A stretch of 32,000 bases of DNA from Candidatus Brocadia sp. (GTDB taxonomy: Bacteria > Planctomycetota > Brocadiia > Brocadiales > Brocadiaceae). Of this stretch, positions 868 to 26,465 are shown in pieces; the stretch's first letter is position 1; each line of letters begins with the position of its first letter. The translations under genes were made by a program, and so were the position numbers. The notes under the pieces are model-generated. The model had not been told where the DNA came from. It did no database searches and saw only the letters and a program-made list of their open reading frames with translations. The stretch is from positions 73,385-105,384 of the forward strand of contig SOEU01000011.1 in assembly GCA_021646415.1 (NCBI GenBank), in the 5' to 3' direction.

Positions 868-1752
868 ATGATAAAGAGTGGAATCATGATGATTATCCAA
901 ACAAAAATGGAGTCCGTTTTTTCCACCGCCCTTCTGAGGAAATGCACGGAGGACAATATCCCGCTCACCATTGCTCTGGGCTCCGGGTATTACATCACAA
1001 CGGTGAAGCCGGATTCAAAAAAATACTATGATGTCTCTTACGAACACGGGAAGAAGTATTATTCACTCTCTGAGACCGAAGTGCTCTGTATTGCAAAGGA
1101 ATTTGCTGCAGGCAAGATACAAAATTACATTGCTCTTTTTCAGCAGAGATTTCTTAAGGAGCAGTACCGGTTTATCGATGAACTGGAGGGGGTGATCTGC
1201 CAGATGCATCAGGCAGGTGACGTTGCGCAGGTGCGCGGCCTGGAAGGTGCGGCGGCAAAGAAGATTTATCAGAGGCTGAATAACTTTATCGATGACGATG
1301 CCTTTCGTATTCTGAAGCGGGACAGGCGGAGCCCAGACCGCATGAACGCCCTGTTAAATTTTGGATATTACCTCCTCTTCTCCCGCATCAATGCCACGGT
1401 GAGGGCGGTTGGCCTGAATCCCTACCTGGGCTTTTTGCACAATCCGCAGGATAATTATGAATCCCTTGTGTGCGATATTGAAGAGCTGTTCAGGGCGAGG
1501 ATTGACCGGTTTATCATACGTCTGATCAATCTGAAGGTTGTTGGTCGGGACGATTTTGTTGAGACGGAAAGGGGTCTCCATCTGAAAAAGGATGTCGTCA
1601 GAAAATTCATCGACCTGTTTGAGTCGGAGATGGAGAAAAAGGGCGCTCAGGGCACATTGTCGATGAAGGAAGACATCTATGTCCAGACCATCGTGCTGAA
1701 GAAATGGGCGATAGAGAACAATTCACTTTCATTCTACCGTTGGAAAATATAA
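868..1752 (+). CDS. cas1: CRISPR-associated endonuclease Cas1 (orphan, N-terminally short)
   Basis: Cas1 alpha-helical-domain signatures read by eye: GLEGAAAKKIYQ, RRSPDRMNALLNFGYYLL, GLNPYLGFLHNPQDNYESLVCDIEELFR. The Glu (GLEG), His (GFLH) and acidic (DIEE) metal-site positions are present. The N-terminal beta domain (GIMMIIQTKMESVFSTALLRKCTEDNIPLTIALGSGYY) appears about 25-35 aa shorter than typical Cas1. No cas2 or array is adjacent. Confidence 0.85.
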   Translation: MIKSGIMMIIQTKMESVFSTALLRKCTEDNIPLTIALGSGYYITTVKPDSKKYYDVSYEHGKKYYSLSETEVLCIAKEFAAGKIQNYIALFQQRFLKEQYRFIDELEGVICQMHQAGDVAQVRGLEGAAAKKIYQRLNNFIDDDAFRILKRDRRSPDRMNALLNFGYYLLFSRINATVRAVGLNPYLGFLHNPQDNYESLVCDIEELFRARIDRFIIRLINLKVVGRDDFVETERGLHLKKDVVRKFIDLFESEMEKKGAQGTLSMKEDIYVQTIVLKKWAIENNSLSFYRWKI

Positions 1753-3376: not shown

Positions 3377-4156
3377 TTAGTAACTTTCCTTGACAACCCG
3401 ACCATGGACTGGTTGAATCGGCCTTGCATCATACTTGAATATTGAACTAAATTTACCCACCCCTGCTTTTGATACCTCAATCGGCGTCTTTAAAATAAAC
3501 CAATTCACAATTTCATTGCAAGGGGGGGTGGTAAGTGAACCAGTGTAGTTATAATATCCTGTGGCATTCTTTGGAAGGAGTTGGCTTGCACATATCCTTA
3601 TATCAGAGACTATATGCTCTTTACCCACATCTTTTGGGAAGTTACTCCACAGGGTTTTTATGAATGCGTTTTCTTTACCTGCCTCAATGAGTACAGCAAC
3701 AACTGCTATTTCTCCATGCTCCCCTTTATGCACGAGATGCGCTTCCATATCGTAATGTTTTCCATGTATTATATGTTCACTCGGCGTATGAAAGTGAAAC
3801 TGTATAAGTTCGAACCTTTTATGGCCTATTGATATTGAGCTTCCTTTCCCATAATTGACCTGAATAGTATGACCGTTATTTATGATTTTTAACGGAGTTG
3901 GGTAATAATGAAAAATTATGTTTTCCATTTTGGCCTTTTCGGTTATAGAAATACCGATCGGTGATTGCATGTCTCCGGTTTTGCACTTGCAATATTCTCG
4001 TTTTAGTTCACCCCAATGATCGGGACCCTGTTCACCTTCGTAATCCCAATGGTCGGAAGGAATGTGCTCACCAACGCCAGCGAACAAAGATGTTGCTGCA
4101 ATAAAGGAAAGGAACACAAAAGCAGACGTTAAAAAAATATATTGAACAGTCTTCAT
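3377..4156 (-). CDS. Alpha-class carbonic anhydrase, secreted
   Basis: Signal peptide MKTVQYIFLTSAFVFLSFIAATSLFA. Motifs HWDYEGEQGPDHWGEL, QSPI, NNGHTIQV, QFHFHTPSEH and EAHLVH include the three zinc-ligand His positions of alpha-CAs. Confidence 0.92.
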   Translation of the reverse strand: MKTVQYIFLTSAFVFLSFIAATSLFAGVGEHIPSDHWDYEGEQGPDHWGELKREYCKCKTGDMQSPIGISITEKAKMENIIFHYYPTPLKIINNGHTIQVNYGKGSSISIGHKRFELIQFHFHTPSEHIIHGKHYDMEAHLVHKGEHGEIAVVAVLIEAGKENAFIKTLWSNFPKDVGKEHIVSDIRICASQLLPKNATGYYNYTGSLTTPPCNEIVNWFILKTPIEVSKAGVGKFSSIFKYDARPIQPVHGRVVKESY

Positions 4157-5790: not shown

Positions 5791-7269
5791 ATGAAATGGT
5801 TGAATTTTAAGCATCCGTTTTATTTGACAACTTTAATTTTATGCGGCTTTACCATAGTAGCTATTCCCCATGGTGTGATTGCAAAGGAGAAAAAAAACAA
5901 GGATAAAAAAAGCACTGTAACGGCAGAATGCGTGTTAAAGAAAATAACGACCATTCCTGGGCAGGAGTTAGTAGTCGAAAGGGGGAAGGGTGTTAATGTT
6001 ACGGTAGTGGTGAAATGCAAAGGTGATATTCCTGCCGCAGGCGTTACGGTTGAAGCTGCTACATTGAAAGGGAAAAAGGTCATTGAACTTTCTCCTATAA
6101 GTGCTGTAACAGACAAAGATGGCAAAGCAGTTTTCACCATTACAGGCAACAGAAAAACAGAAGAGGAACTTGCAGAGATTAAATTTACGGCAGAGAAGCT
6201 TGCCACAAAATTGGCGGTAAAGGTCAGAAGAACCGAATGTAAACCTGGAAATATCAAAATAGAACCCGCGAAGGAATTGGTACTTGAGCCCGGGAAAAGC
6301 AGTCAGATCACGGTAAAGGTGATATGCGAAAACGGTAGCCCTGCTGTGGATGCCAAGGTAGATGCACTTGTTCAGGTTGGCAGCGATAAGTTAGACATTT
6401 CATCATCGGCAGAATTAACCGACGCAAGCGGGAAGGCGGTCTTTACCGTAACGGGTATTCAGGAGACCAAAAAAGGGTCTGCCTCAATCAGGTTTATGAC
6501 CGGAGACCTTAAAGCGGAAGTGGATGTAAAAGTCAAATCAGTTGCAGGAGAGGAAGGCACAGAAACGACACAGTTAGTGCCAAAGGCAATACAAACTATT
6601 CCAGGGCAGGAGGTGACGGTTGCAAGAGGAAAAGATGTCAATGTCGTTGTAAAGGTGATGGGCAAAGGTAACATTCCTGCTGCCGGCGTTACCGTTGAAG
6701 CAGCTACACTGAAAGGGAAAAAGGCCATAGAACTTTCTCCTGTAAGTGCTGTAACAGACAAAGATGGCAAAGCAGTTTTTACCATTACGGGCAACAGAAA
6801 AACAGAAGAGGAACTTGCAGAGATTAAATTTACGGCAGAGAAGCTTGCCGCAAAATTGGCGGTAAAGGTCAGAAGAACCGAATGTAAGCCAGGAAGAATG
6901 AAGATAGAACCCGATCAGAAGGTAGTACTTGAACAGGGAAAGAGTAAGCAGGTCACGGTAAAGGTGATATGCGAAGACGGTAGCCCTGCTGTGGATGCCA
7001 AAGTGGATGCAATCGTCCAGGTTGGCAGTGGTAAGATAGACCTTTCGCCGTCCGCAGAATTAACCGACGCAAGTGGTAAGGCGGTCTTTACCGTAGCGGG
7101 TATTCAGGAAACCAAAAAAGAGCCAGCTACTATTAGGTTTATGACTGAAGACCTTAAAGCATACCTCAACGTAAAAGTTATACCAGTAACGGCAGAGATA
7201 ACACAACCAGAAGAGGCGACACCAAAAGAAATTGCAACTCCAAAAGAAGAGGCAACGCCTGAAAAGTAA
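5791..7269 (+). CDS. Secreted protein with four tandem bacterial Ig-like (Big-type) domains and a Pro/Glu/Thr-rich tail
   Basis: N-terminal signal/TM segment (FYLTTLILCGFTIVAIPHGVIA). Four homologous units of about 100 aa share the pattern EC..(I/K).P..ELV.E.GK...V.V.C..G.PA....V.A...TD..GKAVFT.TG...I.F....L.....VKV. C-terminal tail is EITQPEEATPKEIATPKEEATPEK. Confidence 0.75.
   Translation: MKWLNFKHPFYLTTLILCGFTIVAIPHGVIAKEKKNKDKKSTVTAECVLKKITTIPGQELVVERGKGVNVTVVVKCKGDIPAAGVTVEAATLKGKKVIELSPISAVTDKDGKAVFTITGNRKTEEELAEIKFTAEKLATKLAVKVRRTECKPGNIKIEPAKELVLEPGKSSQITVKVICENGSPAVDAKVDALVQVGSDKLDISSSAELTDASGKAVFTVTGIQETKKGSASIRFMTGDLKAEVDVKVKSVAGEEGTETTQLVPKAIQTIPGQEVTVARGKDVNVVVKVMGKGNIPAAGVTVEAATLKGKKAIELSPVSAVTDKDGKAVFTITGNRKTEEELAEIKFTAEKLAAKLAVKVRRTECKPGRMKIEPDQKVVLEQGKSKQVTVKVICEDGSPAVDAKVDAIVQVGSGKIDLSPSAELTDASGKAVFTVAGIQETKKEPATIRFMTEDLKAYLNVKVIPVTAEITQPEEATPKEIATPKEEATPEK
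5935..7200 (+). repeat. Two-copy tandem duplication (period 645 bp) inside the Ig-repeat gene
   Basis: attcctgc at 6028 recurs at 6673. In the roughly 217 nt compared by eye (6031-6247 vs 6676-6892) I count 13 mismatches. Each unit encodes two Ig-like domains. Confidence 0.85.
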
Positions 7270-8036: not shown

Positions 8037-8123
8037 TCGTGAATGGGAAAATATTGGGAGGATTTTTGATATTGTAACATAATATACATTATCAGACGTT
8101 GTAAATTTATTGACAAAATATTA

Positions 8124-8152
8124 TTGACAATAGAAATTACGTCTGCTACTAT
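8124..8152 (+). promoter_or_regulatory. Candidate sigma70-type promoter of the ACP-to-radical-SAM operon
   Basis: TTGACA (8124-8129), 17-nt spacer, TACTAT (8147-8152). A second TTATTGACAA copy lies 14 bp upstream (8107-8116). The 7-bp inverted repeat CAGACGT (8093-8099) / ACGTCTG (8139-8145) brackets both boxes. Confidence 0.4.
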
Positions 8153-8212
8153 GTTGCCCTGAGTTTTAGCAACGATGGTTGTTTTATTGTTTTGAGCAGT
8201 TTATTATGGAGG

Positions 8213-8491
8213 ATGACGATTTTGAACGCTGAAGAAATTGAAAAAGGTGTAACCGCGATAGTCGCTGAGGTTACAGAATTAGATGAAAAAGAAATTTGGG
8301 ATAAAAGAGATGCAAATTTCTTTAAAGACCTCGAGATTGATTCCCTTTTGGCCTTAGAAATTCTTGCGCTTATTGAGAAGAAATTCAAGGTGCAAATCCC
8401 CGAAGAAAAGCTTGTTGATATTACATCCCTAAGTGCCACCATTGATTTAACAAAATCTGTTTTGGCAGAAAGCGGAAAACTTTCATCTTAA
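8213..8491 (+). CDS. Acyl carrier protein (specialised, operon-encoded)
   Basis: DANFFKDLEIDSLLALEILALIEKKFKVQIPEEKL carries the DSL phosphopantetheine-attachment serine in the normal helix-II context. The start is uncertain: the ORF-track start 8192 is TTG, ATG 8213 abuts GGAGG (8208-8212), and TTG 8222 has better 9-nt spacing. Confidence 0.85.
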   Translation: MTILNAEEIEKGVTAIVAEVTELDEKEIWDKRDANFFKDLEIDSLLALEILALIEKKFKVQIPEEKLVDITSLSATIDLTKSVLAESGKLSS

Positions 8492-8570
8492 AGCTCCAAA
8501 TAACAGGGTGAGAATTGTATATTGTGTTAGGTAATATTATTCTGATTAACGAGACGATGGGCTACAGTAA

Positions 8571-9026
8571 ATGATGCTTTTTGAGGAAATCCGATCTCTT
8601 CTTCCTCAAAAATATCCTTTTTTATTTATAGATAAAGCTATTGAGTTTGAAGAAGGAAAAAGAATTGTTTGTGTAAAAAATGTCTCAGGTAATGAACCAG
8701 TCTTTGTCGGACATTTCCCTGACTTTGCCATTATGCCCGGGGTTTTAATCATCGAGGCAATGGCACAGGCTTCTATCGTCCTGTTCAAGAAGAGCCTTCC
8801 CCCAAAAAATGACAGGGATACGGTTTTTTTATTGGCATCAGTAAATAACGCTCGGTTTACAAAACCCGTCTTTCCTGGCGACCAACTCTTCATAGAAATC
8901 ATTGTAGAAAAAATTGTGTCTAAGGGAGCTATTGTTCAAGCTGCAGTAACGGCTGATGAAAAAGCGGTTGCTAAGGCAACGCTGACTTTTGGAATTGCAG
9001 ATAAAAGCGCATTAATATCGAGTTGA
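8571..9026 (+). CDS. fabZ: 3-hydroxyacyl-ACP dehydratase FabZ
   Basis: [17 protein letters not shown]...[26 protein letters not shown] has the hot-dog-fold FabZ signature, with the catalytic His (GHFP) and Glu (IIEAMAQ) present. Confidence 0.9.
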
Positions 9027-9039
9027 TAAAATTATATTT

Positions 9040-10266
9040 ATGAATAAACGTGTGGTTATAACAGGCGTAGGTATGATCACCCCTATCGGATCGGGAAAGG
9101 ACACATTCTGGAGTGCCCTAATTACTGGGGTATCTGGTGTTGATGATGTGACGTGTATTGACACTTCCGGATATAAGGTACATAAAGGATGCGAAGTAAA
9201 AAACTTCAAGTATTCCGATTATATAAAAAATGGCATCCTTAAAAAAATTGGTAAAGGTTCGCAATTTGCGATTGCGGCAACAAAGCTTGCTCTGGATGAT
9301 GCCAAGCTTAACATCCGTGCCGTTGACTTAGAAAGGCTTGGAGTTTCTGTTGGAACTACTGCGGGAGAAATACAAATCCTGGAAAAAGTCAATTATATAC
9401 GACACAAAGAGGGAGAAGATAAAGTAGACCCCGATTTGTTTCTCATGCATCCATGTAATAATATTCCTGCTAACATTGCCATTGAGTTTGGTTTCAAAGG
9501 TCCCAATACTATTATTCCCACAGCGTGCGCAGCGGGTAATTATGCAATTGGGTATGCTTATGATTTGATTAAGTTCGGACGGGTGGCTATGATGGTTGCT
9601 GGCGGTTCAGACCCTTTTTCGAAAGTTGCCTATACAGGATTTGCCAGATTGGGCGCCATCGCTCCAGAGATATGTCAACCATTTGACAAAAACAGAAAAG
9701 GCATGATGGTTGGTGAAGGCGCAGGCATGCTTCTCTTAGAATCACTTGATCATGCGATGGAGAGGAATGCAAATATTTATGCCGAAATCATTGGTTACGG
9801 CCTTAGCTGTGACGCCTATCATATAACTATCCCTCATCCCGATGGGGAAGGCGTTATCTCCGCTATGAAAAAAGCCTTAAAATGCGCAAATCTAAAACCA
9901 GAAGACGTCCAGTATGTCAGTGCCCATGGAACAGGAACTCCTGCTAATGACAAAGCCGAAACGATCTCTATTAAAAAGGTATTTGGGGATAAACCTGAGC
10001 ATCTCGCAATTAGTTCAATAAAATCAATGATTGGTCATACCATGGGTGCTGCCAGTGCAATAGAAGCCATTACCTGTGCATTGGTTGTCCAAAACGATAT
10101 CATTCCCCCGACGATTAATTATGAAACACCGGATCCTGAATGTGATCTGGATTATGTACCTAATGTAGCAAGAAAACAAAAGGTAAATATCGCACTGAAT
10201 AACGCTCATGCATTTGGTGGCAATAATAGCTGTTTAGTCGTTAAAAAATTTACAGGCAGAACGTGA
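9040..10266 (+). CDS. fabF: Beta-ketoacyl-ACP synthase II (FabF-type), catalytic triad intact
   Basis: [15 protein letters not shown]; active-site Cys in [11 protein letters not shown]; His in [14 protein letters not shown]; His in [13 protein letters not shown]; C-terminal [14 protein letters not shown]. Confidence 0.92.
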
Positions 10267-10319
10267 AAAAACAAACAGTTCTCCGGAACTGAATTAGGCG
10301 CCTATAACAGAGGTTTGTA

Positions 10320-11561
10320 ATGGAAAAAACGAGGATAGTTGTTACCGGTGTTTCGGTTATTTCATCCATTGGAAGTAATAAGGAAGTTTTTTGGAATAAT
10401 TTAACCAATGGTGTATCAGGCATTAAACCCATTACCTTGTTTGATGTAAGTAAATTTCATAGTAAACAAGCCGGTGAGATTTCTGATTTTGACGCAAAGG
10501 TCTACCTTGGCCAAAAGGGAATCCGCCATATTGATAGGACATCCCTTCTTGTATCATCTGCGACGGTTCTTGCCATTAAGGATGCCAATTTAGAGAATAA
10601 TACCTACAGTGGTGATGAATTAGGTATTGTCGTTGGTTCTACGTATGGCAGTATTGATAGTATCAGTTCTTTCGATTTCCAGTCTTTGCGTGAAGGTCCT
10701 AATTATGTGAATCCCATGGATTTTCCTAATACCGTGCTGAATGCACCAGCAAGCCGTGCCTCTATTTTTTGTAAGGCAACAGGGCTGAATACAACCATTT
10801 CAAATGGTGTAACAAGCAGCATCGATGCGATTATTTATGCCTCTGATTTCCTTCGGATGGGTCGGGTAAAGGCTGTAGTTGCCGGAGGCGTGCATGGATT
10901 AACTCATGACATCTTTTGGGGAGCACATAATTCTAAAATATTATCGGGAAGTAAGGATGGGACTCAGGAAATTTGTGCACCCTTTGACAAAAGACGCAAT
11001 GGGATGGTCATTGGTGAAGCATCGGCATTAGTCATCCTCGAAACCTTAGAAGATGCGCTCCGGAGAAATGCACATATTTATGCAGAAATCAAGGGTTACG
11101 GAACCGCATTTGACCCTGAAATGGCTGTTAGCAGGGATTATCAGATAGACGGCAACAAAAGGGCTATCATGGGTGCCATTCATGATGCCAGTCTGACGTT
11201 GAATGATATTTCTTACATATCTGCCAATGCTTATTCTGGTGTTTATGGCGATGCAATGGAAACCAGAGTTATTAAAGAAGTCTTCGGCATGAGAGCAAAT
11301 CTTATTCCTGTTACCGCAATAAAATCTATGACAGGTGAATGTTATGATGCCTCGGGAGCATTGCAGACAATAGCCGCAGCAATGTCCATGAACACACACA
11401 CAGTTCCACCGACAATTAACCTTAAGGAACGTGACCCTGAGTGTGATTTAGATTATGTTGCCAATATCGCCAGGGTCTTACCAGTCAAAAATGTCCTAAT
11501 CAACACCTTTTCACGATTGGGAAATAATTCGGCCTTAATTATCTCCAAATACAAGCAGTAA
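10320..11561 (+). CDS. Ketosynthase paralog lacking the Cys-His-His triad (chain-length-factor/KS-beta-like)
   Basis: Full-length thiolase-fold KS similarity to the upstream FabF (TRIVVTGVSVISSIG..., [34 protein letters not shown]). In ungapped local alignment [11 protein letters not shown] aligns with SNGVTSSIDAI (Cys to Val), SAHGTGTP with SANAYSGV (His to Asn) and [11 protein letters not shown] with KSMTGECYDAS (His to Glu). Confidence 0.85.
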   Translation: MEKTRIVVTGVSVISSIGSNKEVFWNNLTNGVSGIKPITLFDVSKFHSKQAGEISDFDAKVYLGQKGIRHIDRTSLLVSSATVLAIKDANLENNTYSGDELGIVVGSTYGSIDSISSFDFQSLREGPNYVNPMDFPNTVLNAPASRASIFCKATGLNTTISNGVTSSIDAIIYASDFLRMGRVKAVVAGGVHGLTHDIFWGAHNSKILSGSKDGTQEICAPFDKRRNGMVIGEASALVILETLEDALRRNAHIYAEIKGYGTAFDPEMAVSRDYQIDGNKRAIMGAIHDASLTLNDISYISANAYSGVYGDAMETRVIKEVFGMRANLIPVTAIKSMTGECYDASGALQTIAAAMSMNTHTVPPTINLKERDPECDLDYVANIARVLPVKNVLINTFSRLGNNSALIISKYKQ

Positions 11562-11564
11562 TTC

Positions 11565-13025
11565 ATGATATCTTCCAACCGGTGCATTCAATCCACTAAA
11601 AAGGATAGTCTTTATCCTTCTTATGATGCAATTGTGATTGGTGCAGGTATTGCTGGTCTGGTTTGCGGTGCATTCCTCGCCAGGATCGGGAAAAAGGTAC
11701 TCATTGTGGAGCAGCATTCCATCCCTGGCGGTTATTGCACTTCATTTAAAAGGAAAGGTTTCAATTTCGATGCGGCAGTTCACCATATTGGGGGTTGTGG
11801 AAAATGGGGTATTGTAGGGCGTTGCCTTAAAATTCTGGAGATAGAGCTGGATTTTTATCCTCTCGATCCAATGGACCATTTGATTTTCCCCAACCTTACC
11901 ATAGAAATTCCAGCCGATTTGGACGAATATATCATACGTTTACAGGGTCGCTACCCATCGGAAAAGGATAGCGTCAAGCATTTCTTTCAGGATTTTTTAA
12001 AGCTCTATCGCGCTACATTCAATAATGAGAAAAGCCAAATTATAGATAAATATAAAAATCAGACGTATATTGAAATGTTGAATGCTTTTTTGAAAAATGA
12101 CGAGCTCAAGATGATACTTTCTGGTCAATGGGGTTATATAGGGCTCCCCCCTACCCAAGCTTCTGCTATAGGCATGTGCCAGATGATGATCAATTATCTC
12201 AAAGACGGCGCCTTTTTTCCTGCGGGTGGTACGCAAGAGTTTGCTAATGCAATTTTTAAGAAATTTATTGATTTTGGTGGGCATATTATGCTATCATCCA
12301 AAGCCGAAAAAATTTTATGTACCGGCAAAACCGCCGTTGGTGTAAAATTGCAGGAAGGGAAAGAGATATCCTCGGACGTTGTTGTTTCAAACATTGATGC
12401 CCGGCAGACCTTTTTCGGATTATTAGAAGGTAAATCAGATACACCATTCCTTCAAAGAATTAGAGAAATGAAGGAAAGTTGTTCCTTTTGCCTTTTATAC
12501 TTGGGAGTAGGTGAAGGCATAGATTTAAGTGAATTAAAAAGAGGATTTTATCATACTGCCACAGATGCAAGATATGTAAATGACGAGTGGATGTATGTGT
12601 CGGTTCCAACGAAGATAAGCCCTGCACTTGCCCCGCCAAACAAGCAGATAATCTCTGCGGTTGTTTACATGGAGAAAGAAAAATATAATGATATTACTGA
12701 TTGGAAATCTTTTAAAGAAAGTATGATATCAGGTACAATAAATCGACTGGAAGAATACGTCCCTGATATAAAAAAACATATCGAAGTAAAAGATGCGGCT
12801 ACCCCGAAAACTCTGGAGCGGTACACGTTAAATACCAATGGAGCCGCTTACGGCTGGGAGGTCAGTGTGGATCAAATATGGGATAATAGACTTCCCCATC
12901 AGACGCCGATTGATAATCTGTATTTGACTGGTCATTGGACAAGGCCTGGTCCTGGAATTTGTGCTGTTGTTTCTTCTGGATGGGGTGTAGCAAATTTAAT
13001 TATGGAGAAGGAGAATTGGAGGTAA
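11565..13025 (+). CDS. Phytoene-desaturase-family (CrtI-like) FAD-dependent oxidoreductase
   Basis: N-terminal dinucleotide-binding fold YDAIVIGAGIAGLVCGAFLARIGKKVLIVEQHSIPGGYCTSF. About 486 aa, with the C-terminal LYLTGHWTRPGPGI motif typical of CrtI/amine-oxidase-fold enzymes. It starts 3 nt after the KS-like stop. Confidence 0.85.
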   Translation: MISSNRCIQSTKKDSLYPSYDAIVIGAGIAGLVCGAFLARIGKKVLIVEQHSIPGGYCTSFKRKGFNFDAAVHHIGGCGKWGIVGRCLKILEIELDFYPLDPMDHLIFPNLTIEIPADLDEYIIRLQGRYPSEKDSVKHFFQDFLKLYRATFNNEKSQIIDKYKNQTYIEMLNAFLKNDELKMILSGQWGYIGLPPTQASAIGMCQMMINYLKDGAFFPAGGTQEFANAIFKKFIDFGGHIMLSSKAEKILCTGKTAVGVKLQEGKEISSDVVVSNIDARQTFFGLLEGKSDTPFLQRIREMKESCSFCLLYLGVGEGIDLSELKRGFYHTATDARYVNDEWMYVSVPTKISPALAPPNKQIISAVVYMEKEKYNDITDWKSFKESMISGTINRLEEYVPDIKKHIEVKDAATPKTLERYTLNTNGAAYGWEVSVDQIWDNRLPHQTPIDNLYLTGHWTRPGPGICAVVSSGWGVANLIMEKENWR

Positions 13026-13029
13026 ATTT

Positions 13030-14490
13030 ATGAAAAGAAAAATGATGTTGATTAACCCACACAAGCCGGGTAGGCATGGCGAAGAGAGTATTACCGTAAT
13101 CGTCCAGATGCCTTTGAATCTTGCTTATGTTGCCGCCCTTACGCCAGGCGATTGGGAATTTGACGTTATTGACGAAAATCTCGAATTGGCAATAGATGAT
13201 AACGGTGAAATTACCTTTAAACCCGTAGATCTTGTGTGTATAACAGCAGTTACCTATCAATCTCCCAGGGCCTACACGATTGCTACTGCCTGTAGGAAAA
13301 AGGGTATGACCGTAATCATGGGTGGAATACATGCGTCTGTAATGCCTGAGGAAGCCATAAAGTACGTCGATGCTGTTTTTGTGGGTGAGGCAGAGGAAGT
13401 ATGGCCACAGGTAATCAAAGATTTTGAAGACGGAAAGCTCAAGAAGATTTATCAGGGAGGATTGCCTCCCCTCAGCCTGATGAAAAAGGTATATCCTAAT
13501 CGGGAGCTCATGAAGAAAAAATATGACTATAAATTTTCTTCCATTGTCACAACGAAGGGATGCCCGAACTATTGCGATTTCTGCAGCGTCCCCACATTCC
13601 AGGGAAGAAAATTCAGGGAGAGACCTTATGAAGATGTTCTCGCAGAGATGGCCGCAACAGATTATAAGGGTTTGATGCTGGCAGAGGATAATTTTTACGG
13701 TCATGGGAAAAAGTCAAACGAGAGGGCACGGGATCTTTTTAAGGGCATGGTGGAGCGCGGCATCCACAAAGATTGGCTAGGATTTACTGCTTTAAATATT
13801 TCTCAGGATCCTGAGACATTAAATTATATGGCAAAGAGTGGCTGCTTTGGTATGCTTATCGGTATCGAATCTACCAATGAGGCCGTTTTACAGAAGATGA
13901 ATAAGCGGGTAAACCTTAAGCTGGGTACAGATAGTTACTTTGATTGTATCCAAAAGATACACGATGCCGGCCTGGTTGTTTGGGGATCAGTAGTGTTTGG
14001 AGCCGATGGAGATGATAAAGACTCCTTTAAAAGAATGACTGAGTTCATATTGGAAAATAATATTGATATTCTTACCTTTGGTATTAACTGCCCATTCCCC
14101 AAGACTCAACTTTATGCCAGACTGGATTCAGAAAAGAGGATCTTCAGGAAAAATTATCCAGAAGATTGGCAATACTATGATACTGCTCATGTGGTTCATC
14201 GTTTCGTAGACATGACGTTAGAAGGCTTTATCGAAGGTATGCAATATGTTTATGATCATGTTTACGCAGGTGATAACCTAAGAACACGTTTCAGAAATTC
14301 TATTAAGACAACGAAAAATCCGAGAAATTCCATGTTTGCATTCAGGGTAGGTTCTGACTGGAAACAGGTCTTTGAACAGGTCTTGCAGAATTTAAAAGAG
14401 TTGTATGACTCAGGTGATTATTATAAAGATTATTACAAATCAAGTGCGGTACCTGTTTCAAAACCCATAATGGAAGCAGTTACTACATAA
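13030..14490 (+). CDS. B12-binding-domain radical SAM enzyme (class B)
   Basis: N-terminal Rossmann-like cobalamin-domain pattern (LNLAYVAALTP...VCITAVTYQSPRAYTIATACRKKGMTVIMGGIHAS...VFVGEAE). Radical SAM cluster motif TKGCPNYCDFCSV (CxxxCxxC). GGAGG RBS 7 nt upstream. It starts 4 nt after the oxidoreductase stop. Confidence 0.9.
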   Translation: MKRKMMLINPHKPGRHGEESITVIVQMPLNLAYVAALTPGDWEFDVIDENLELAIDDNGEITFKPVDLVCITAVTYQSPRAYTIATACRKKGMTVIMGGIHASVMPEEAIKYVDAVFVGEAEEVWPQVIKDFEDGKLKKIYQGGLPPLSLMKKVYPNRELMKKKYDYKFSSIVTTKGCPNYCDFCSVPTFQGRKFRERPYEDVLAEMAATDYKGLMLAEDNFYGHGKKSNERARDLFKGMVERGIHKDWLGFTALNISQDPETLNYMAKSGCFGMLIGIESTNEAVLQKMNKRVNLKLGTDSYFDCIQKIHDAGLVVWGSVVFGADGDDKDSFKRMTEFILENNIDILTFGINCPFPKTQLYARLDSEKRIFRKNYPEDWQYYDTAHVVHRFVDMTLEGFIEGMQYVYDHVYAGDNLRTRFRNSIKTTKNPRNSMFAFRVGSDWKQVFEQVLQNLKELYDSGDYYKDYYKSSAVPVSKPIMEAVTT

Positions 14491-14526
14491 TACAAACAAA
14501 TTATGTATTCCTGAATAAGAAGTTTA

Positions 14527-14572
14527 CAAAGGCACATCAATTTTTATGCATTTGATGTGCCTTTGTGTTATG
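14527..14572 (+). terminator. Intrinsic terminator closing the six-gene operon
   Basis: Perfect 14-bp stem CAAAGGCACATCAA (14527-14540) / TTGATGTGCCTTTG (14552-14565), an 11-nt loop, followed by a T-containing tail TGTGTTATGG. Confidence 0.7.
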
Positions 14573-14597
14573 GATTTTATGTTCGGTGGGGAATTGA

Positions 14598-15023
14598 GTG
14601 AAAGATATTCTGGACCGAATTAAAAATTTTGTCAAACGAGTAGAACTCTTTTATGTGGCAACTTCTAATCAAAAGGGAGAGGTACATCTTGCTGTAGCGA
14701 AGGATTTGATTTTTTTACCTGATACGGAACACATAGCTTTTAAGGCGTGGTTTTGCAAAAAAACGATTGAAAATATTCAAAAAAACCCGAATATATCCAT
14801 TGCCATTTATGATGCAAAGTCTGATACGGGTTACCAAATTATTGGTAAGGCAATTTCAAAGAGTGTCGTTGCTGTTTTGAATGGTTACGCACCTGAGTTA
14901 GAAATGGTTGAAAAAGAATATCCGCAAGAAGAGTATCAACTAAAGATAAAGATAATAAATATTATGGAACTACATAGAGTAACACATTCTGATAAGTATC
15001 TTTTAAGTAATGGATCTTTATAG
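14598..15023 (+). CDS. Pyridoxamine-5'-phosphate-oxidase-like (split-barrel flavin-binding) small protein
   Basis: GTG start. VELFYVATSNQKGEVHLAVA...IAFKAWFCKKTIENIQKNPNISIAIYD...GYQIIGKA resembles the PNPOx/general-stress-26 fold pattern. The family assignment is tentative. Confidence 0.5.
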   Translation: MKDILDRIKNFVKRVELFYVATSNQKGEVHLAVAKDLIFLPDTEHIAFKAWFCKKTIENIQKNPNISIAIYDAKSDTGYQIIGKAISKSVVAVLNGYAPELEMVEKEYPQEEYQLKIKIINIMELHRVTHSDKYLLSNGSL

Positions 15024-15213: not shown

Positions 15214-15342
15214 ATGATAGGTAAATTATTATCTCTGTCTATGGAAAAATCAGTTATCCCGGATATTAGCCCAAAAGCGATTATGGTTATCGCCATCGCA
15301 CTTATATTCGTTATTCTATTTACCTGGAAAAAGGAGGGGTAA
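15214..15342 (+). CDS. Micro-ORF (42 aa) for a single-pass membrane peptide, translationally coupled to lpdA
   Basis: AAGGAGG (15199-15205) lies 8 nt before the ATG at 15214. Product is MIGKLLSLSMEKSVIPDISPKAIMVIAIALIFVILFTWKKEG, with one clear TM helix. Its TAA (15340-15342) directly abuts the lpdA TTG start (15343), and its last codons form the lpdA RBS (AAGGAGGGG). Absent from the ORF track (<60 aa). Confidence 0.4.
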   Translation: MIGKLLSLSMEKSVIPDISPKAIMVIAIALIFVILFTWKKEG

Positions 15343-16776
15343 TTGCCTGAAGGAAACTCTACCTTTGATCTTACAATCATTGGTGGCGGGCCAGGTGGTT
15401 ATGTAGCGGCTATAAAAGCTGCTCAGCTAGGAATAAAAACCGCTCTCGTCGAAAGGGATAAGGTTGGTGGTACGTGTTTACATAAGGGTTGCATTCCAAC
15501 AAAGGTACTCCTCCATTCCGCGGACCTTTACATGCAATTTCTCAAGGCAAATGAATTCGGGATCGTCGTTGATAAAATAGGAATTAATTATCCACAATTT
15601 CATCGGCGAAAGGAAGCAGTTGTTAAACGACTATTTCAAGGGACGCAATTTCTCCTCAAAAAAAATGGTGTAGAAGTTTTTTCTGGTGAAGGACAGCTCA
15701 CATCATCAAACAACGTCTTAATCAAAAAAAATGGAACGGACGTTGGTAAAATAACTACAAAAAATGTTATCGTAGCTACGGGGTCGGTTCCGCTCATTCC
15801 GGTTAATATCCCATGCGACGGAAAATACGTGCTTACCAGTGATGATGTTTTACTATGGGAAGAAATCCCGAAATCTATTATCATTGCAGGTGGCGGTGCT
15901 GTCGGAGTGGAATTCGCCCACCTTTTTAATAGCCTTGGAACTAAGGTAACCATTATAGAACTCCTGGATGATATCCTTCCTGCCGAAGATAAGGAAATTA
16001 GTACCACTTTAAGAAAAATTTTCAATAAGAGAGGCATCGATGTCCTGACAAATACCTCTTTAGAAACAGTCATAATCGATAATGGCGTTCGTGTAAAAAT
16101 AAGCAGAAAAAACAATACATCTCCCCCCCCTGCGAAAACTGAAAATAAAGAATTTATAAAAGCGGATCGTTTACTCCTCTCATTGGGCAGAATGCCTGCC
16201 TTTGCAGATATTGGGATAGAAAAATTGTCATTACATTTTAAAGGAAAATATCTGCAAACCAATGAGGTTATGGAAACCAATCTAAGCGGACTCTTTGCTA
16301 TTGGAGACATTAAAGGCCCCCCCCTTCTTGCCCACAAGGCTTCGCACGAAGGGGTACTGGCTGTTTCTCACATCGCTGGCAAAGAAACCACCCCGATAAA
16401 TTATCAGAATATACCGAGAGTGACGTACTGCCTTCCACAGGTAGCAAGTATAGGACTCACACAAGAAGAGGCAGAAAAAAGAGAATACAAAATAAGAGTA
16501 GGAAAATTTCCACTCATTGCTAACAGTAAAGCCATTATTGACGGTGAATATGAAGATGGATTTGTAAAAATCGTTTCTGATGAAAAATACGGTGAGATAT
16601 TAGGAATGCATGCCATAGGACCAAACGTGGGTGAATTGATGTGGGGTATGTCACTTGCAACTATTCTGGAAGGGACGGCCATTGAGTTAAGGAATACTAT
16701 ATTTCCCCACCCCACTCTCTCCGAGGCCATTTCAGAAGCTGCCCATGCAGTTGTTGATAAACCAATACATTTATAA
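15343..16776 (+). CDS. lpdA: Dihydrolipoyl dehydrogenase (E3)
   Basis: FDLTIIGGGPGGYVAAIKAAQLG; redox-active disulfide GGTCLHKGCIPTK; second NAD-binding GGGAVGVEFA; C-terminal HPTLSEA interface motif. TTG start. Confidence 0.92.
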   Translation: MPEGNSTFDLTIIGGGPGGYVAAIKAAQLGIKTALVERDKVGGTCLHKGCIPTKVLLHSADLYMQFLKANEFGIVVDKIGINYPQFHRRKEAVVKRLFQGTQFLLKKNGVEVFSGEGQLTSSNNVLIKKNGTDVGKITTKNVIVATGSVPLIPVNIPCDGKYVLTSDDVLLWEEIPKSIIIAGGGAVGVEFAHLFNSLGTKVTIIELLDDILPAEDKEISTTLRKIFNKRGIDVLTNTSLETVIIDNGVRVKISRKNNTSPPPAKTENKEFIKADRLLLSLGRMPAFADIGIEKLSLHFKGKYLQTNEVMETNLSGLFAIGDIKGPPLLAHKASHEGVLAVSHIAGKETTPINYQNIPRVTYCLPQVASIGLTQEEAEKREYKIRVGKFPLIANSKAIIDGEYEDGFVKIVSDEKYGEILGMHAIGPNVGELMWGMSLATILEGTAIELRNTIFPHPTLSEAISEAAHAVVDKPIHL

Positions 16777-19299: not shown

Positions 19300-19773
19300 C
19301 TACACTACCATCCCAATAATGACTCCTTCAAATACGAGTTTTCCATTTACCACACCTTGAGTATCAAAGACGGCCCTGCGTGAACGCAATTCCTTGTTTT
19401 TTGCAATGAGAATAAGTTTGTCGCCAGGGATAACTTTTCCACGGAATTTTACTTTATCGATACCACCAAAGCCAAGGAAGCGGTCGTCCTGTGTGGTTTT
19501 TTTGTAATAATAGGTACATAACTGTGCGGCCGCTTCAAGCATAATTACCCCAGGCATCAGGGGACGGCCAGGAATGTGTCCCTGCACCCAAAATTCACTA
19601 TTCGAAATGTCTTTATAACCTATTATAATTTTATTTTCAGGATCAAATTTTATAATGCCGCTCAATTGTTCCATCTCATATCGGTGCGGTATGACGGCAC
19701 GAATAGCCTCGATACCCACTGTCGGTTTATTTAAATCCAAATTGTTTAAATCAGTTAAAATGTCCTGTGGCAT
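19300..19773 (-). CDS. Second FabZ/FabA-like 3-hydroxyacyl-ACP dehydratase
   Basis: IPHRYEMEQL...SEFWVQGHIPGRPLMPGVIMLEAAAQ has the catalytic His and Glu positions conserved. The ORF-track start at 19818 is GTG; I prefer the ATG at 19773 (MPQDILTDL...), but the start is uncertain. Confidence 0.85.
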   Translation of the reverse strand: MPQDILTDLNNLDLNKPTVGIEAIRAVIPHRYEMEQLSGIIKFDPENKIIIGYKDISNSEFWVQGHIPGRPLMPGVIMLEAAAQLCTYYYKKTTQDDRFLGFGGIDKVKFRGKVIPGDKLILIAKNKELRSRRAVFDTQGVVNGKLVFEGVIIGMVV

Positions 19774-19911
19774 ATGATACACGAGAAAATTATTTGTAAA
19801 AACCGGCAAATAAAGCACACTATTTTGTTTGATTCAAAATATTAATAATGATTCGTTATCGTGTCAATGAAAATCTCATAGAGCAAGAAAAACATTCAGC
19901 AAAAAATATAA

Positions 19912-22154: not shown

Positions 22155-22880
22155 CTAGTAACTCCAATTCTCGTGGCGCAAAGGACTTTTATTCAACTCC
22201 TCTTTGTAAAATCTCCACTTTAGCAAATACGTATCCATGTAGGCGATAAATCTTTCATTATGATGACGTTCTAACAGATGCACCATTTCATGCACAATGA
22301 TATATTCAATACATTCTTTTGATTTTTTGGCCAGTTCAAGATTTAACCAGATCCTTTTTGCCTCTCTGTTACACGTACCCCATTTCGTCTTCATCTTTTT
22401 TATGGCATACTCAACACCGTCCAGTCTCATCTTTTTCTTCCAACAAGCAATATATTCGGGAACAATTTCCTTCAGTTTCTGGCGATACCATTCTTCCAAA
22501 ACAACCCGTTTTTTTTCTATGCTTGCGCCAGGTCTTACATACAATTCAAGAACGCTGTGCTTTAATATAACTTTTGGAGCAGCGTTATGCTCAAAAACTT
22601 TCAGCAGGTATCGCTTGCCCAGATAGTAATGACTTTCCTGTGTTAAAAATTCCCTTGGGGTTTCTCGTTCCTGACTGAGCAGTTTTTGCTGCTGTTTCTT
22701 TATCCAACTTAATTTTGATAGAGCGAAAACCCTAATAGTTTCAAGGTCCATGCGTAAGGGAGCGGAAATTCTTACCCTCCCTATTGGCGGATAAACACCC
22801 AGATGAATATTCTTAATATCCTTTTGAATTACATCAATAGGTAAATTACTCAATTGGATTTGCTGCATATCAATACTCAT
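22155..22880 (-). CDS. YgjP-like/DUF45 zinc metallopeptidase (M48-like), the usual type I R-M companion
   Basis: C-terminal HExxH in IIVHEMVHLLERHHNERF, preceded by KWGTCN. It overlaps the hsdR stop by 11 nt. Confidence 0.8.
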   Translation of the reverse strand: MSIDMQQIQLSNLPIDVIQKDIKNIHLGVYPPIGRVRISAPLRMDLETIRVFALSKLSWIKKQQQKLLSQERETPREFLTQESHYYLGKRYLLKVFEHNAAPKVILKHSVLELYVRPGASIEKKRVVLEEWYRQKLKEIVPEYIACWKKKMRLDGVEYAIKKMKTKWGTCNREAKRIWLNLELAKKSKECIEYIIVHEMVHLLERHHNERFIAYMDTYLLKWRFYKEELNKSPLRHENWSY

Positions 22881-25800: not shown

Positions 25801-25902
25801 GCGGTCTTCCCAATTGCCCAGGTAGTTATAGCCCAATTCTTTATGGAACAAGGCAATTATCCTGTTTTGGGTTTCACGTTCTTTTTTGCCGATGTTGCTC
25901 AT
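22870..25902 (-). CDS. hsdR: Type I restriction enzyme, R (endonuclease/translocase) subunit
   Basis: PD-(D/E)xK nuclease region RPDIVLYVNGVALGVLELKRS. SF2 helicase motif I HTQGSGKSLVMV, motif II (DEAH-type) FVDECHRTQ, later motifs TGTPL and QAICRVNR. 1010 aa. Confidence 0.95.
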   Translation of the reverse strand: MSNIGKKERETQNRIIALFHKELGYNYLGNWEDRQNNSNIEEAILRKYLRERKRYNNTLINKALYELGKAANNLNDGLYSANKKVYQLLRYGVKVKAEAGENYETVELIDWKHPLENEFAIAEEVTIRGNHEKRPDIVLYVNGVALGVLELKRSTISIGDGIRQNIVNQQKEFIQSFFTTIQWVFAGNDTQGLRYGTIGTPEKYFLTWKEEGEGENLFDKYLVKLCDKRRFLEIIYDFTLFDGGMKKLCRPHQYFGVKAAQEHAKRREGGIIWHTQGSGKSLVMVWLAKWILENNPHARVVIITDRDELDKQIERIFTDVGESMVRTRNGKDLMDQLGKALPRMLCSLVHKFGRKGVDNFDAFIEELKRSPIHTVGELFIFVDECHRTQSGKLHKTMKAILKNAIFIGFTGTPLLKQDKQTSLEVFGKYIHTYKFNEAVADEVVLDLVYEARDIDQKISSSQKIDEWFEAKTRGLNDFQKSELKKKWGTMQKVLSSRSRLEKIVSDIVFDFNVKPRLNSDRGNAILVASSIYEACRYFELFQTTELKGKCAIVTSYNPSTRDITTEDTGANTETEKEYIYNIYKSLLGNKPTEKYEDEAKEKFIKEPSNMKLLVVVDKLLTGFDAPPCTYLYIDKSMQDHGLFQAICRVNRLDSDDKEFGYIVDYKDLFRKVENAVAVYTSELDYDTFEKGDVDVLLKDRLEKGRERLDNALEEMALLCEPVAPPKDSLAYIRYFCGDPENEEDLKSNEVKRTSLYKQTVALIRAYANIAAEMEEAGYTQAEIADIKKKVDYYLKLREEIRNASGETLDMKTYEADMRHLIDTYIQAEEPRTISPFANMSLLDLLVNSGIADAINSLPEGIKRNKEAVAETIENNVRKKIIQEHLIDPAYFEEMSKLLHEIVKERKTNAINYEAYLKKIAELAKKVNNPARDNLPASIKNSNARRALYNNLNHDEELAVVMDEAVRYVKKADWRGNDAKEREIKKALYDILKDANEVERIFPIIKQQNEY

Positions 25903-26465
25903 GGTATTTCCTGTTTAAAGAATGTATCTTTTTCCCATTTTTCGGGATTGGTTCTGATATAATTTGCAATTCGGTGGTATTCATCCTCGTCGCGGATGAT
26001 GTGGTCATGAAAACGGGATTGCCACACAGGTATTTTGGGCGTATTACGAAATTCGTTGATGCGTTTGGTTGCAGATGATTTGAATCCCCCCCCAAATGAT
26101 GAAATGGATCGGATCGAACGATGGGCAATTCCCGTGTTCGTGGGCGTTTGTAGAGACGCACGGCCGTGCGTCTGTACGGATGTGGTTGGGTCGGAATTTT
26201 CAATTCGCACAATGGCGTGCAGATGGTTGGGCATCAATACAAATGCATCGCAAAATAATTCCGCCCGAATTTGAAACGATTGTTCCCATTCCCGCAAAAC
26301 GATTTCGCCCATGGGCGATGGTTGCATTTGTCCGTCGCGAATTTTGCCAAAGACACATTCATGATGTGCGGTACAAATGGTGATGAAATAACACCCGCGC
26401 CATGAATAATCCCACCACGGCGCCCGTGCCGATGGTATGCGGTATCTATTTTTGAATTTTTCCAT
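25899..26465 (-). CDS. IS200/RAYT-like Y1 HUH transposase-family protein embedded in the R-M operon
   Basis: YFITICT, HUH motif in FVLMPNHLHAIVRI, and WQSRFHDHIIRDEDEYHRIANYIRTNPEKW (catalytic-Tyr helix). The start codon shares nt 26465 with the hsdS stop, and its stop overlaps the hsdR ATG (ATGA, 25899-25902). Confidence 0.8.
   Translation of the reverse strand: MEKFKNRYRIPSARAPWWDYSWRGCYFITICTAHHECVFGKIRDGQMQPSPMGEIVLREWEQSFQIRAELFCDAFVLMPNHLHAIVRIENSDPTTSVQTHGRASLQTPTNTGIAHRSIRSISSFGGGFKSSATKRINEFRNTPKIPVWQSRFHDHIIRDEDEYHRIANYIRTNPEKWEKDTFFKQEIP

Follow-up and report, generated by a model that had tools for sequence, protein, structure and literature searches.

Anammox Cluster I in Candidatus Brocadia and its collinear counterparts outside the anammox bacteria

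Is the six-gene operon studied here the gene cluster that has been proposed for ladderane lipid synthesis in anammox bacteria, and how far does its gene content point to a ladderane product? The window, by which we mean the whole analyzed stretch of 32,000 nucleotides, has a GC content of 41%. The original prediction assigned it to a Brocadiales genome, and this assignment was correct: proteins MCF6155650-59 of a MAG whose source labels read Candidatus Brocadia are exact matches to the window proteins, and synteny with B. sinica JPN1 spans about 19 kb, from a carbonic anhydrase gene to rplM/rpsI, with 91% DNA identity across the operon (7 kb). The Kustd1514-family S-layer-like gene which neighbours the operon also fits an anammox host. 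No hydrazine synthase gene was found within the window.

All six genes lie on the plus strand. The gene of an acyl carrier protein (ACP, 92 aa, amxACP ortholog; positions 8213-8491; PF00550, 52.6 bits) is followed by those of an amxFabZ-type 3-hydroxyacyl-ACP dehydratase (8571-9026), an active ketosynthase (KS, amxFabF2 ortholog; 9040-10266), a dead ketosynthase resembling a chain-length factor (CLF) partner (amxFabFmut ortholog; 10320-11561), a CrtI/CrtD-fold FAD enzyme (kuste3607 ortholog; 11565-13025), and a radical SAM enzyme with a B12-binding domain (kuste3608 ortholog; 13030-14490). The common direction of the genes and the intergenic gaps of exactly 79, 13, 53, 3, and 4 nt had been predicted and are the same in the ORF list. 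The predicted gene labels agree with the Pfam domains, which are in turn PP-binding, FabA, N- and C-terminal ketoacyl-synt domains in both ketosynthases, Amino_oxidase with NAD_binding_8, and B12-binding with Radical_SAM. We conclude with high confidence that this operon is orthologous to anammox Cluster I (kuste3603-3608) and is its Candidatus Brocadia copy, a self-contained type II FAS/PKS-like module with its own ACP. The operon is therefore real but not new, since the cluster has previously been proposed, and partly characterised, as the anammox ladderane-lipid cluster.

Cluster I was proposed for ladderane lipid synthesis in Kuenenia stuttgartiensis (Rattray 2009), and the same functions were given for kuste3603-3608 in a later work, in which expression of these genes in E. 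coli yielded neither ladderane nor other new fatty acid (Javidpour 2016). Both papers, the expression result, and the locus tags had been given correctly in the original prediction. Other literature on Cluster I includes Dietl 2023 and the Granatino 2026 preprint. In the K. stuttgartiensis cluster (locus L001) all six genes recur with unchanged order and orientation, and protein identities are 70-93% (ACP 88-93%, FabZ 82%, KS 88%, dead KS 81%, CrtI-like 70%, radical SAM 87%). This cluster also resembles the window operon in the triads of the live and dead KS, the amxFabZ signatures, the promoter block, and the downstream 42-aa ORF with dihydrolipoyl dehydrogenase, but it lacks the PNPOx-like gene and the strong hairpin of Brocadia and has other upstream neighbours. 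Cluster I of B. sinica JPN1 (L093) and B. fulgida (Broful02170/02171; 9S5H, 9S5I) shows 86-100% protein identity, PNPOx-like gene and hairpin included. Here the divergence is only at the species level, and the least conserved products are the CrtI-like (90%) and PNPOx-like (86%) proteins.

The Cluster I genes of Kuenenia and Brocadia are reciprocal best matches of the window genes, and in searches with the radical SAM and CrtI-like proteins Brocadia, Kuenenia, Jettenia, Scalindua, and Tripitaka come first. The orthologous cluster expected in Kuenenia and other anammox genera was found, collinear in L001 and L093. The anammox radical SAM clade is supported by 83/100 NJ bootstraps. A separate clade (100/100) is formed by the radical SAM enzymes of a paralogous anammox cluster outside the window (L009, L010), which we equate with kuste2803-2805 (radical SAM, FabF, non-canonical KS) by gene order only. 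In this cluster a live KS and a dead KS come after a B12 radical SAM gene whose product shares 52-55% identity with the window enzyme, and ACP, FabZ, and the CrtI-like gene are lacking.

How well do the individual products agree with their characterised orthologs? The ACP reading frame opens at a TTG at 8192, while the ATG at 8213 gives the 92-aa form. This form is one of the two called in B. sinica assemblies (89 or 92 aa), and its sequence matches the B. sinica protein at 100% identity. The phosphopantetheine site is a DSL motif with Ser44. Among the crystallised amxACP chains (structures 7AUF and 9S5I), identity is about 99% to 9s5i_E over the aligned residues and 93% to 7auf_A, so the unusual long 3-10 helix of amxACP is expected in the window protein. 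It scores under the cut-off of every NCBIfam ACP model. The FabZ protein has PDB 8ayd as its top structure match (263 bits), is 82-83% identical to the kuste3604 ortholog at L001, and exceeds the cut-off of one NCBIfam FabZ model (149 vs 113 bits). Structures of amxFabZ have been solved and its short-chain preference measured; its signatures are Ile69 for Gly, and Ser/Thr96 and Val/Ile115 for Lys/Arg (PMC10139942). Aligned to 7qv0/8ayd, the window protein keeps Ile69, Thr96, and Val115, as well as the catalytic His48/Glu62.

For the ketosynthases, a preprint (10.64898/2026.05.19.726425) distinguishes amxFabF2, with Cys-His-His, from amxFabFmut, in which Val (or Thr) stands in for Cys, and Asn, Glu, or Cys for both His. 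The window pair agrees with this distinction. The live KS carries the motifs PTACAAG, AHGTG, and GHTMG with an intact triad Cys163/His296/His333, and the dead KS has NGVTSS, ANAYS, and GECYD with Val, Asn, and Glu at the triad positions. The live KS matches 9s5h_B with 856 bits, is 97% identical to its B. sinica ortholog, and lies above the PRK07314 subfamily cut-off (453 vs 387 bits); the dead KS matches 9s5h_C with 836 bits and is 91% identical to that of B. fulgida. The pair was reported in the same preprint as a KS/CLF-like heterodimer decarboxylating malonyl-amxACP (PDB 9S5H/9S5I), where the activity is that of the Kuenenia ortholog and the crystal structures are those of B. fulgida orthologs; the heterodimer failed to extend hexanoyl-ACP in vitro. 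Judging from their sequences, the window KS and dead KS would form the same malonyl-ACP-decarboxylating heterodimer.

What can be said of the last two enzymes? The flavoenzyme has an N-terminal FAD-binding Rossmann motif (NAD_binding_8, 52.9 bits), and its AF2 model (pLDDT 90.4) has a CrtI/CrtD fold, with TM 0.82 to 4rep and E = 1e-25 to 4dgk. It remains below the threshold of the phytoene desaturase model TIGR02734 (166.5 bits, cut-off 238.1) and of a carotenoid isomerase model (172 bits, cut-off 587), and kuste3607 was negative for phytoene desaturase (CrtI) activity in vivo (Javidpour 2016). The radical SAM enzyme contains PF02310 (40.1 bits, cut-off 32.1) and PF04055 (52.7 bits), and its CxxxCxxC motif, Cys178/182/185, is invariant across 16 homologs. 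Structure searches found no close solved relative; the nearest folds are AprD4, MgmA, TsrM, TokK, OxsB, and CysS, with AprD4 as the best structural match. AprD4 carries a B12-binding domain yet is not known to make use of cobalamin, and for this reason cobalamin binding by the window enzyme cannot be assumed. The fold searches on both enzymes could not tell a methylase apart from enzymes of other chemistry. Membership of TIGR04072 (rSAM_ladder_B12) was considered and rejected, as the score of 90.4 bits is far under the cut-off of 360 and the model stands for another family of radical SAM enzymes. The original view that the chemistry of this operon has no demonstrated enzymology consequently holds for the CrtI-like and radical SAM enzymes and not for the ACP, FabZ, and KS pair, for which structures or assays exist.

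Upstream of the operon a motif scan finds the putative sigma-70-like promoter of the original prediction, TTGACA-17-TACTAT with a TG extension, on the plus strand at 8124-8152. Its -35 and -10 blocks are unchanged in the window, B. sinica, and Kuenenia, and the rest of the spacer is divergent. Promoter-like matches over the whole region are not enriched (28 vs 23.5 expected). On the same strand, 3′ of the radical SAM gene, there is a perfect hairpin at 14527-14565, a candidate terminator or attenuator, with a stem of 15-16 bp (14 in the original prediction), a loop of 11 nt, and z = -6.9 against shuffles. It is kept in B. sinica and missing from Kuenenia. The terminator scan gave no call at this hairpin because its 3′ tail has no clean U-run and its loop is longer than 8 nt, and the predicted terminator role is therefore at most plausible.

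These components suggest a possible course of synthesis. The conserved sigma-70-like promoter would drive all six genes, and the ACP, by homology, would be phosphopantetheinylated on Ser44. The KS/dead-KS heterodimer would then decarboxylate malonyl-ACP and yield acetoacetyl-ACP, as shown for the Kuenenia ortholog, whose proteins are 81-88% identical to those of the window (preprint 10.64898/2026.05.19.726425). The beta-keto group would probably be reduced by a ketoreductase encoded elsewhere; FabG adjoins some of the clusters found outside anammox bacteria. FabZ, with its tunnel-narrowing Ile, may dehydrate short 3-hydroxyacyl-ACPs up to a limit of about C6-C8, an activity shown for the Scalindua ortholog (PMC10139942). 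As the operon has no enoyl reductase, enoyl or polyenoyl intermediates might be tailored by the last two enzymes: we speculate that the CrtI-fold flavoenzyme could desaturate or isomerise them, and that the B12-type radical SAM enzyme could add radical C-H/C-C chemistry. On balance we lean slightly to the view that the product of the cluster feeds ladderane lipid synthesis, and the basis of this view is association.

Cluster I has been called "unique to ladderane-producing bacteria" (preprint 10.64898/2026.05.19.726425). Clusters in Acidobacteriota and in a Planctomycetota-labelled MAG contradict this exclusiveness. We detected collinear ACP-FabZ-KS-dead KS-CrtI-like-B12 radical SAM clusters in Blastocatellia GCA_035652355.1, in Acidobacteria 13_1_40CM_2_60_7 / GCA_036790625.1, in the Planctomycetota-labelled MAG GCA_008501825.1 (57% GC), and on an unlabelled JGI metagenome contig, 3300082212 (66% GC). 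The homology and synteny check suggested with the original prediction thus has a divided outcome: the best matches are all anammox, but the same synteny occurs in non-anammox lineages too. The Blastocatellia cluster is 76% identical to the window in ACP, 69% in KS, and 61% in radical SAM, and the seryl-tRNA synthetase on its contig is Blastocatellia-like. In the non-anammox clusters Cys-His-His is present in the first KS, and none of these residues remains in the second; three of the four have Ile at the tunnel position of FabZ, and the other has Leu. At the Cys position of the dead KS, which is Val in the window, the residue in homologous clusters is Glu, Ala, or Leu. These clusters also differ from the window: protein identities range over 33-76%, GC content is 50-66% versus 41%, FabG and FabH adjoin some of the clusters, two carry a second radical SAM-KS-dead KS module as a fusion, and one contains inserted FGE-sulfatase-like and SRPBCC cyclase-like genes.

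The hosts of these clusters, soil Acidobacteriota among them, are not known as ladderane makers, which makes it less safe to go from Cluster I to ladderane. The product of the operon may instead be an acyl chain, of short or medium length and either unsaturated or radically modified, that anammox bacteria have in common with some Acidobacteriota and other Planctomycetota, with the ladderane ring steps carried out by other genes. The collinear clusters speak for this, as do the grouping of their radical SAM proteins with the Cluster I enzyme and not with the anammox paralogs (84/100 NJ bootstraps), the short-chain preference of FabZ and of the KS/CLF pair, and the heterologous expression without ladderanes (Javidpour 2016). 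However, the cluster is kept in all anammox lineages sampled and is highly expressed, and the non-anammox carriers might themselves make ladderane-like lipids. We consider such a non-ladderane product a serious possibility, though on the doubtful side.

Could the operon be a pigment or natural-product cluster, of the aryl-polyene or another type II polyketide kind, which only resembles the anammox one? A likeness to type II PKS KS/CLF systems has been drawn (preprint 10.64898/2026.05.19.726425). In such systems (actinorhodin ActI; ishigamide Iga11/Iga12) an active KS and an adjacent inactive homolog are likewise combined with a dedicated ACP and a dehydratase and no enoyl reductase. The Pfam annotation of homologous FabZ proteins in databases includes ApeI-like and ApeP-like families, and the ishigamide KS (6kxd) comes close to FabF in score (335 vs 370 bits). 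By sequence both window subunits are nearer FabF than they are to KS or CLF proteins of PKS systems, and their genes are 53 nt apart and not translationally coupled. Aryl-polyene clusters have accessory genes for an adenylating or CoA-ligase enzyme, a thioesterase, acyl- and glycosyltransferases, LolA-like export, and a ketoreductase. None of these, the ketoreductase included, turned up among the window genes that were scanned with Pfam, and no second ACP was found in the flanks either. Aromatic-PKS CLFs typically carry Gln at the Cys position, where the window dead KS has Val. For each of the six proteins the close homologs all come from anammox bacteria, and a polyketide cluster is very unlikely. 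A housekeeping role, as a further FAS II operon that makes ordinary straight-chain fatty acids, is hardly credible at all, although FabZ passes one NCBIfam model and the KS passes PRK07314. The ACP is under all NCBIfam ACP cut-offs, one KS is catalytically dead by its triad residues, FabZ has the tunnel-blocking Ile, the operon has no FabG, FabI, FabD, or FabH, and CrtI-like and B12-type radical SAM enzymes are embedded in it; in Kuenenia the canonical FAS II cluster is separate, kustd1386-1391 (Javidpour 2016).

Returning to the Cluster I ortholog itself, three genes follow it on the plus strand. Whether the PNPOx-like flavoprotein gene (14598-15023; PF01243, 33.5 bits) belongs to the operon had been left undecided in the original prediction. 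The ORF exists and occurs in three B. sinica-type loci (86-87% identity), but it is missing at the Kuenenia locus and in every other cluster examined, and it is probably a Brocadia-only neighbour outside the cluster core. A 42-aa hydrophobic ORF (15214-15342) abuts the dihydrolipoyl dehydrogenase gene (15343-16776; TIGR01350, 528 bits). These two are possible members of the operon; neither was seen beside the cluster in other lineages, and the pair lies downstream of the radical SAM gene in Brocadia and Kuenenia alike.

The six-gene operon of the window (8213-14490, plus strand) is orthologous to Cluster I of Kuenenia stuttgartiensis, the proposed ladderane operon. It consists of genes encoding an acyl carrier protein (ACP, ending at 8491), FabZ (8571-9026), a ketosynthase (KS, 9040-10266), a second KS-like protein without the catalytic triad, here called dead KS (10320-11561), an amine-oxidase/CrtI-like protein (11565-13025) and a B12-binding/radical SAM protein (13030-14490), all on the plus strand. 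The ORF list gave the same gaps of 79, 13, 53, 3 and 4 nt as in the original prediction of six co-directional genes, and each predicted gene label was upheld by both Pfam and NCBIfam. In B. sinica JPN1 the stretch between the carbonic anhydrase gene and rplM/rpsI, both included, is syntenic with the window, and the operon DNA is 91% identical to that of this strain. K. stuttgartiensis has the identical six-gene set and order, with 88-93% identity to the window for ACP, 82% for FabZ, 88% for KS, 81% for dead KS, 70% for the CrtI-like protein, and 87% for the radical SAM protein. Of the ten window products tested, nine exactly matched proteins in the series MCF6155650-59, encoded on a contig of 119,585 bp in a MAG of Candidatus Brocadia sp.

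These comparisons support the interpretation of the operon as the proposed anammox ladderane-lipid cluster. The locus tags kuste3603-3608 and the two citations of the original prediction proved to be right, because Javidpour et al. list the same functions for kuste3603-kuste3608 (ACP, FabZ, FabF, non-canonical FabF, phytoene desaturase, and SAM radical enzyme) and Rattray et al. proposed the clusters in 2009. According to Javidpour et al., expression of kuste3603-kuste3608 in E. coli yielded neither ladderanes nor new fatty acids, and kuste3607 was without CrtI activity. This operon has been described before, and part of it has been characterised.

The ACP reading frame opens with TTG at 8192, and the ATG at 8213 gives a 92-aa form. 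This form is one of the gene calls of the B. sinica assemblies at the locus (89 or 92 aa), and its sequence matches the B. sinica protein at 100% identity. The version read from TTG 8192, which was the tenth product tested, was absent from the protein collection, which is consistent with the later start. The predicted TTGACA-17-TACTAT element was found at 8124-8152, together with a TG extension, and promoter-like matches showed no enrichment across the region as a whole. When the spacer 5′ of the ACP gene was compared between the window (8040-8215), the B. sinica locus (L093:4016-4200), and the Kuenenia locus (L001:5040-5190), it diverged between Brocadia and Kuenenia except at AATATTATTGACAA and GTCTGCTAC(T/C)ATG, the −35 and extended −10 of the promoter-like site. 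This site is supported as a putative real promoter because the −35/−10 block is invariant in all three inside an otherwise divergent spacer. At the other end of the operon, the hairpin at 14527-14565 does have a perfect stem (15-16 bp, loop of 11 nt, folding z = −6.9), but it is no more than a plausible terminator: its tail has no clean U-run, and the terminator scan passed over it on account of its weak T-tract and a loop of more than 8 nt. The hairpin is kept in B. sinica and missing in Kuenenia. Rfam detected no RNA families in the window.

The products of the first four genes could be compared with proteins of known structure. The window ACP shares 93% identity with 7AUF and, across the residues aligned, about 99% with chain 9S5I_E; KS scored 856 bits against chain B and dead KS 836 bits against chain C of 9S5H. 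The first KS has Cys163/His296/His333, and dead KS has Val, Asn, and Glu in their places, as described for amxFabF2 and amxFabFmut, the Cluster I KS and dead KS. In the window FabZ the catalytic His and Glu are present, as are the Ile69, Thr96, and Val115 specific for the Cluster I enzyme, amxFabZ, which prefers 3-hydroxyacyl chains up to C6-C8 (PMC10139942). The proteins amxFabF2 and amxFabFmut co-purify as a heterodimer resembling a KS/chain-length factor; in vitro it decarboxylated malonyl-amxACP and formed acetoacetyl-ACP, and did not elongate hexanoyl-ACP (10.64898/2026.05.19.726425). Such a heterodimer accounts for dead KS, but not for the CrtI-like and radical SAM enzymes. Readings of the operon as an aryl-polyene cluster, a type II PKS, or a housekeeping FAS were considered and rejected.

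The CrtI-like protein was modelled with a CrtD/CrtI fold (pLDDT 90, TM 0.82 to 4rep), and it scores under the NCBIfam crtI_fam cut-off. The radical SAM enzyme has class B architecture, and the solved folds nearest to its model are AprD4, MgmA, TsrM, TokK, OxsB, and CysS at 12-18% identity. Its membership in the 'ladder' radical SAM family TIGR04072 was ruled out, as it scored 90 bits where the cut-off is 360. Both models give family-level folds only, with 12-21% identity to the nearest structures, and these predicted folds tell no mechanism apart for either enzyme.

The radical SAM search gave a continuum of matches down to 52% identity, some of them labelled Acidobacteria or Planctomycetota, and context look-ups of individual proteins revealed the same six-gene order at four places outside anammox bacteria. 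These are a Blastocatellia MAG (GCA_035652355.1, L090:5170-11476), an Acidobacteria MAG of 60% GC (13_1_40CM_2_60_7 / GCA_036790625.1, L004:5476-11476) where FabG and FabH follow, a Planctomycetota-labelled MAG of 57% GC (GCA_008501825.1, L089:4338-10434), and a metagenome contig of 66% GC (JGI 3300082212, L088:3101-10437). Their proteins are 33-76% identical to those of the window; in the Blastocatellia cluster the values are 76% for ACP, 57% for FabZ, 69% for KS, 52% for dead KS, 44% for the CrtI-like protein, and 61% for the radical SAM protein. In all four clusters the first KS keeps Cys-His-His, of which the second retains no residue, and the FabZ tunnel position is occupied by Ile in three of them and by Leu in the other. 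The CrtI-like and radical SAM proteins of a Terriglobales MAG carry consecutive accession numbers.

The Blastocatellia contig is genuine: all named relatives of the seryl-tRNA synthetase encoded 3 kb 5′ of the cluster, at about 70% identity, are labelled Blastocatellia. When the CrtI-like protein of the Blastocatellia cluster served as query, a discrete family at or above 366 bits comprised the anammox genera and a few Acidobacteriota MAGs, and the next matches were at 299 bits. The genome-contig search with the radical SAM alignment, which is no phyletic census, gave four close loci among the 80 matches listed, most of which had 28-39% identity. All non-anammox carriers among the matches were MAG or metagenome records, with no cultured organism. 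The literature searched, with its incomplete coverage, held no description of close collinear acidobacterial clusters, which leaves their novelty unproven.

At a separate locus (L009:10001-14271; L010:10001-14185), anammox genomes also have a paralogous cluster in which a radical SAM gene is joined by KS and dead KS genes. Its gene order agrees with kuste2803-2805, and its radical SAM proteins are 52-55% identical to that of the window. In the metagenome contig and the Planctomycetota-labelled MAG, a second radical SAM-KS-dead KS set lies directly 3′ of the six genes (L088:10481-16519, L089:10480-14838); both sources are unassigned or non-Brocadia-labelled and fall outside the known anammox genera. 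This arrangement points to a functional link between the two anammox clusters, or to their descent from one cluster. In the NJ tree of radical SAM proteins the anammox Cluster I clade had 83/100 bootstraps, the paralog clades had 100/100, and the group of Cluster I with non-anammox sequences, excluding the paralogs, had 84/100; NJ on a single protein is a weak method and gives no direction of transfer.

How ladderanes are made has long been an open problem; we know of no enzyme demonstrated to build the fused cyclobutanes and of no genetic system for anammox bacteria. A review of August 2026 presents three speculative ladderane routes, with no experimental link. The operon is the consensus ladderane candidate, known since 2009 and under active structural study, so one more Brocadia MAG copy adds nothing alone; the part worth following is the comparative result, which ties Cluster I physically to the second module. 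The presence of the module in non-anammox genomes contradicts the published view that only ladderane producers have Cluster I. The link between Cluster I and ladderanes is one of association, which we rate at slightly better than even, somewhat lowered because the cluster also occurs outside anammox bacteria.

A tentative reading, to which we give about one chance in three, is that Cluster I is neither an anammox invention nor a specific marker of ladderane producers, and would be part of a wider ACP-FabZ-KS/dead-KS-CrtI-like-B12-radical-SAM family. This family would extend to Acidobacteriota (Blastocatellia, Terriglobales, and Vicinamibacteria MAGs), the Planctomycetota-labelled MAG, and the unlabelled high-GC contig, with the second module fused in some; no description of it was found in the literature searched. 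If this is true, then either the module builds a shared modified acyl chain and the ladderane-specific steps are encoded at other loci, or cyclobutane-type lipids also occur in organisms other than anammox bacteria. Either way, the non-anammox carriers would offer an independent route to the product, and their clusters point to alternative hosts, or alternative sets of genes, for heterologous expression.

More distant arrangements, at about 30-36% identity, occur in two Geobacter MAGs (L018, L023) and a Thermodesulfobacteriota MAG (L029:7834-11122). In the Geobacter loci radical SAM genes are followed by KS and truncated KS genes, with a FabZ-like gene also in L018, and in L029 a CrtI-like gene adjoins the radical SAM gene. 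Rattray et al. reported more distant similar clusters in Deltaproteobacteria, and these arrangements are probably the same ones.

The neighbours of the operon vary between genera. The PNPOx-like gene, proposed as a possible seventh member, was rejected as such, being confined to Brocadia loci (86-87% identity) and missing in Kuenenia. A hydrophobic 42-aa ORF (MIGKLLSLSMEKSVIPDISPK..., 15214-15342, plus strand), without a family match, abuts the dihydrolipoyl dehydrogenase gene at its start. The ORF is conserved with 100% identity in B. sinica and 79-80% in Kuenenia. This pair lies 3′ of the radical SAM gene in Brocadia and Kuenenia, and neither gene stands beside the cluster in the deeper-branching lineages L007 and L008. 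A second FabZ/FabA-like gene (19300-19818, minus strand, 172 aa) lies between a HAD hydrolase gene and rplM, as in B. sinica. Its product is only 29% identical to Kuenenia Cluster I FabZ and under both FabZ cut-offs (107 vs 155, 104 vs 113).

Upstream of the operon, a secreted-looking 492-aa protein with Big_1 domains (5791-7269, plus strand) consists of two halves, nearly identical and each about 230 aa long, and matches the Kustd1514 anammox S-layer family below cut-off. The 3′ end of its gene contains a short 18-nt repeat (7209-7256); tandem repeats of note were absent from the window. The Cas1 gene (868-1752, plus strand, 154 bits on TIGR00287) is followed directly by two bactofilin genes on the opposite strand, and no CRISPR array or other cas gene was detected alongside it in the window. 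A type I restriction-modification operon (hsdR, hsdS, hsdM; 22870-30027, minus strand) carries between hsdR and hsdS an inserted REP-associated tyrosine transposase-like gene (25899-26465), which scores 70 bits where the cut-off is 80. The gene of a eukaryotic-type (alpha) carbonic anhydrase (3377-4156, minus strand) has the same position in B. sinica.
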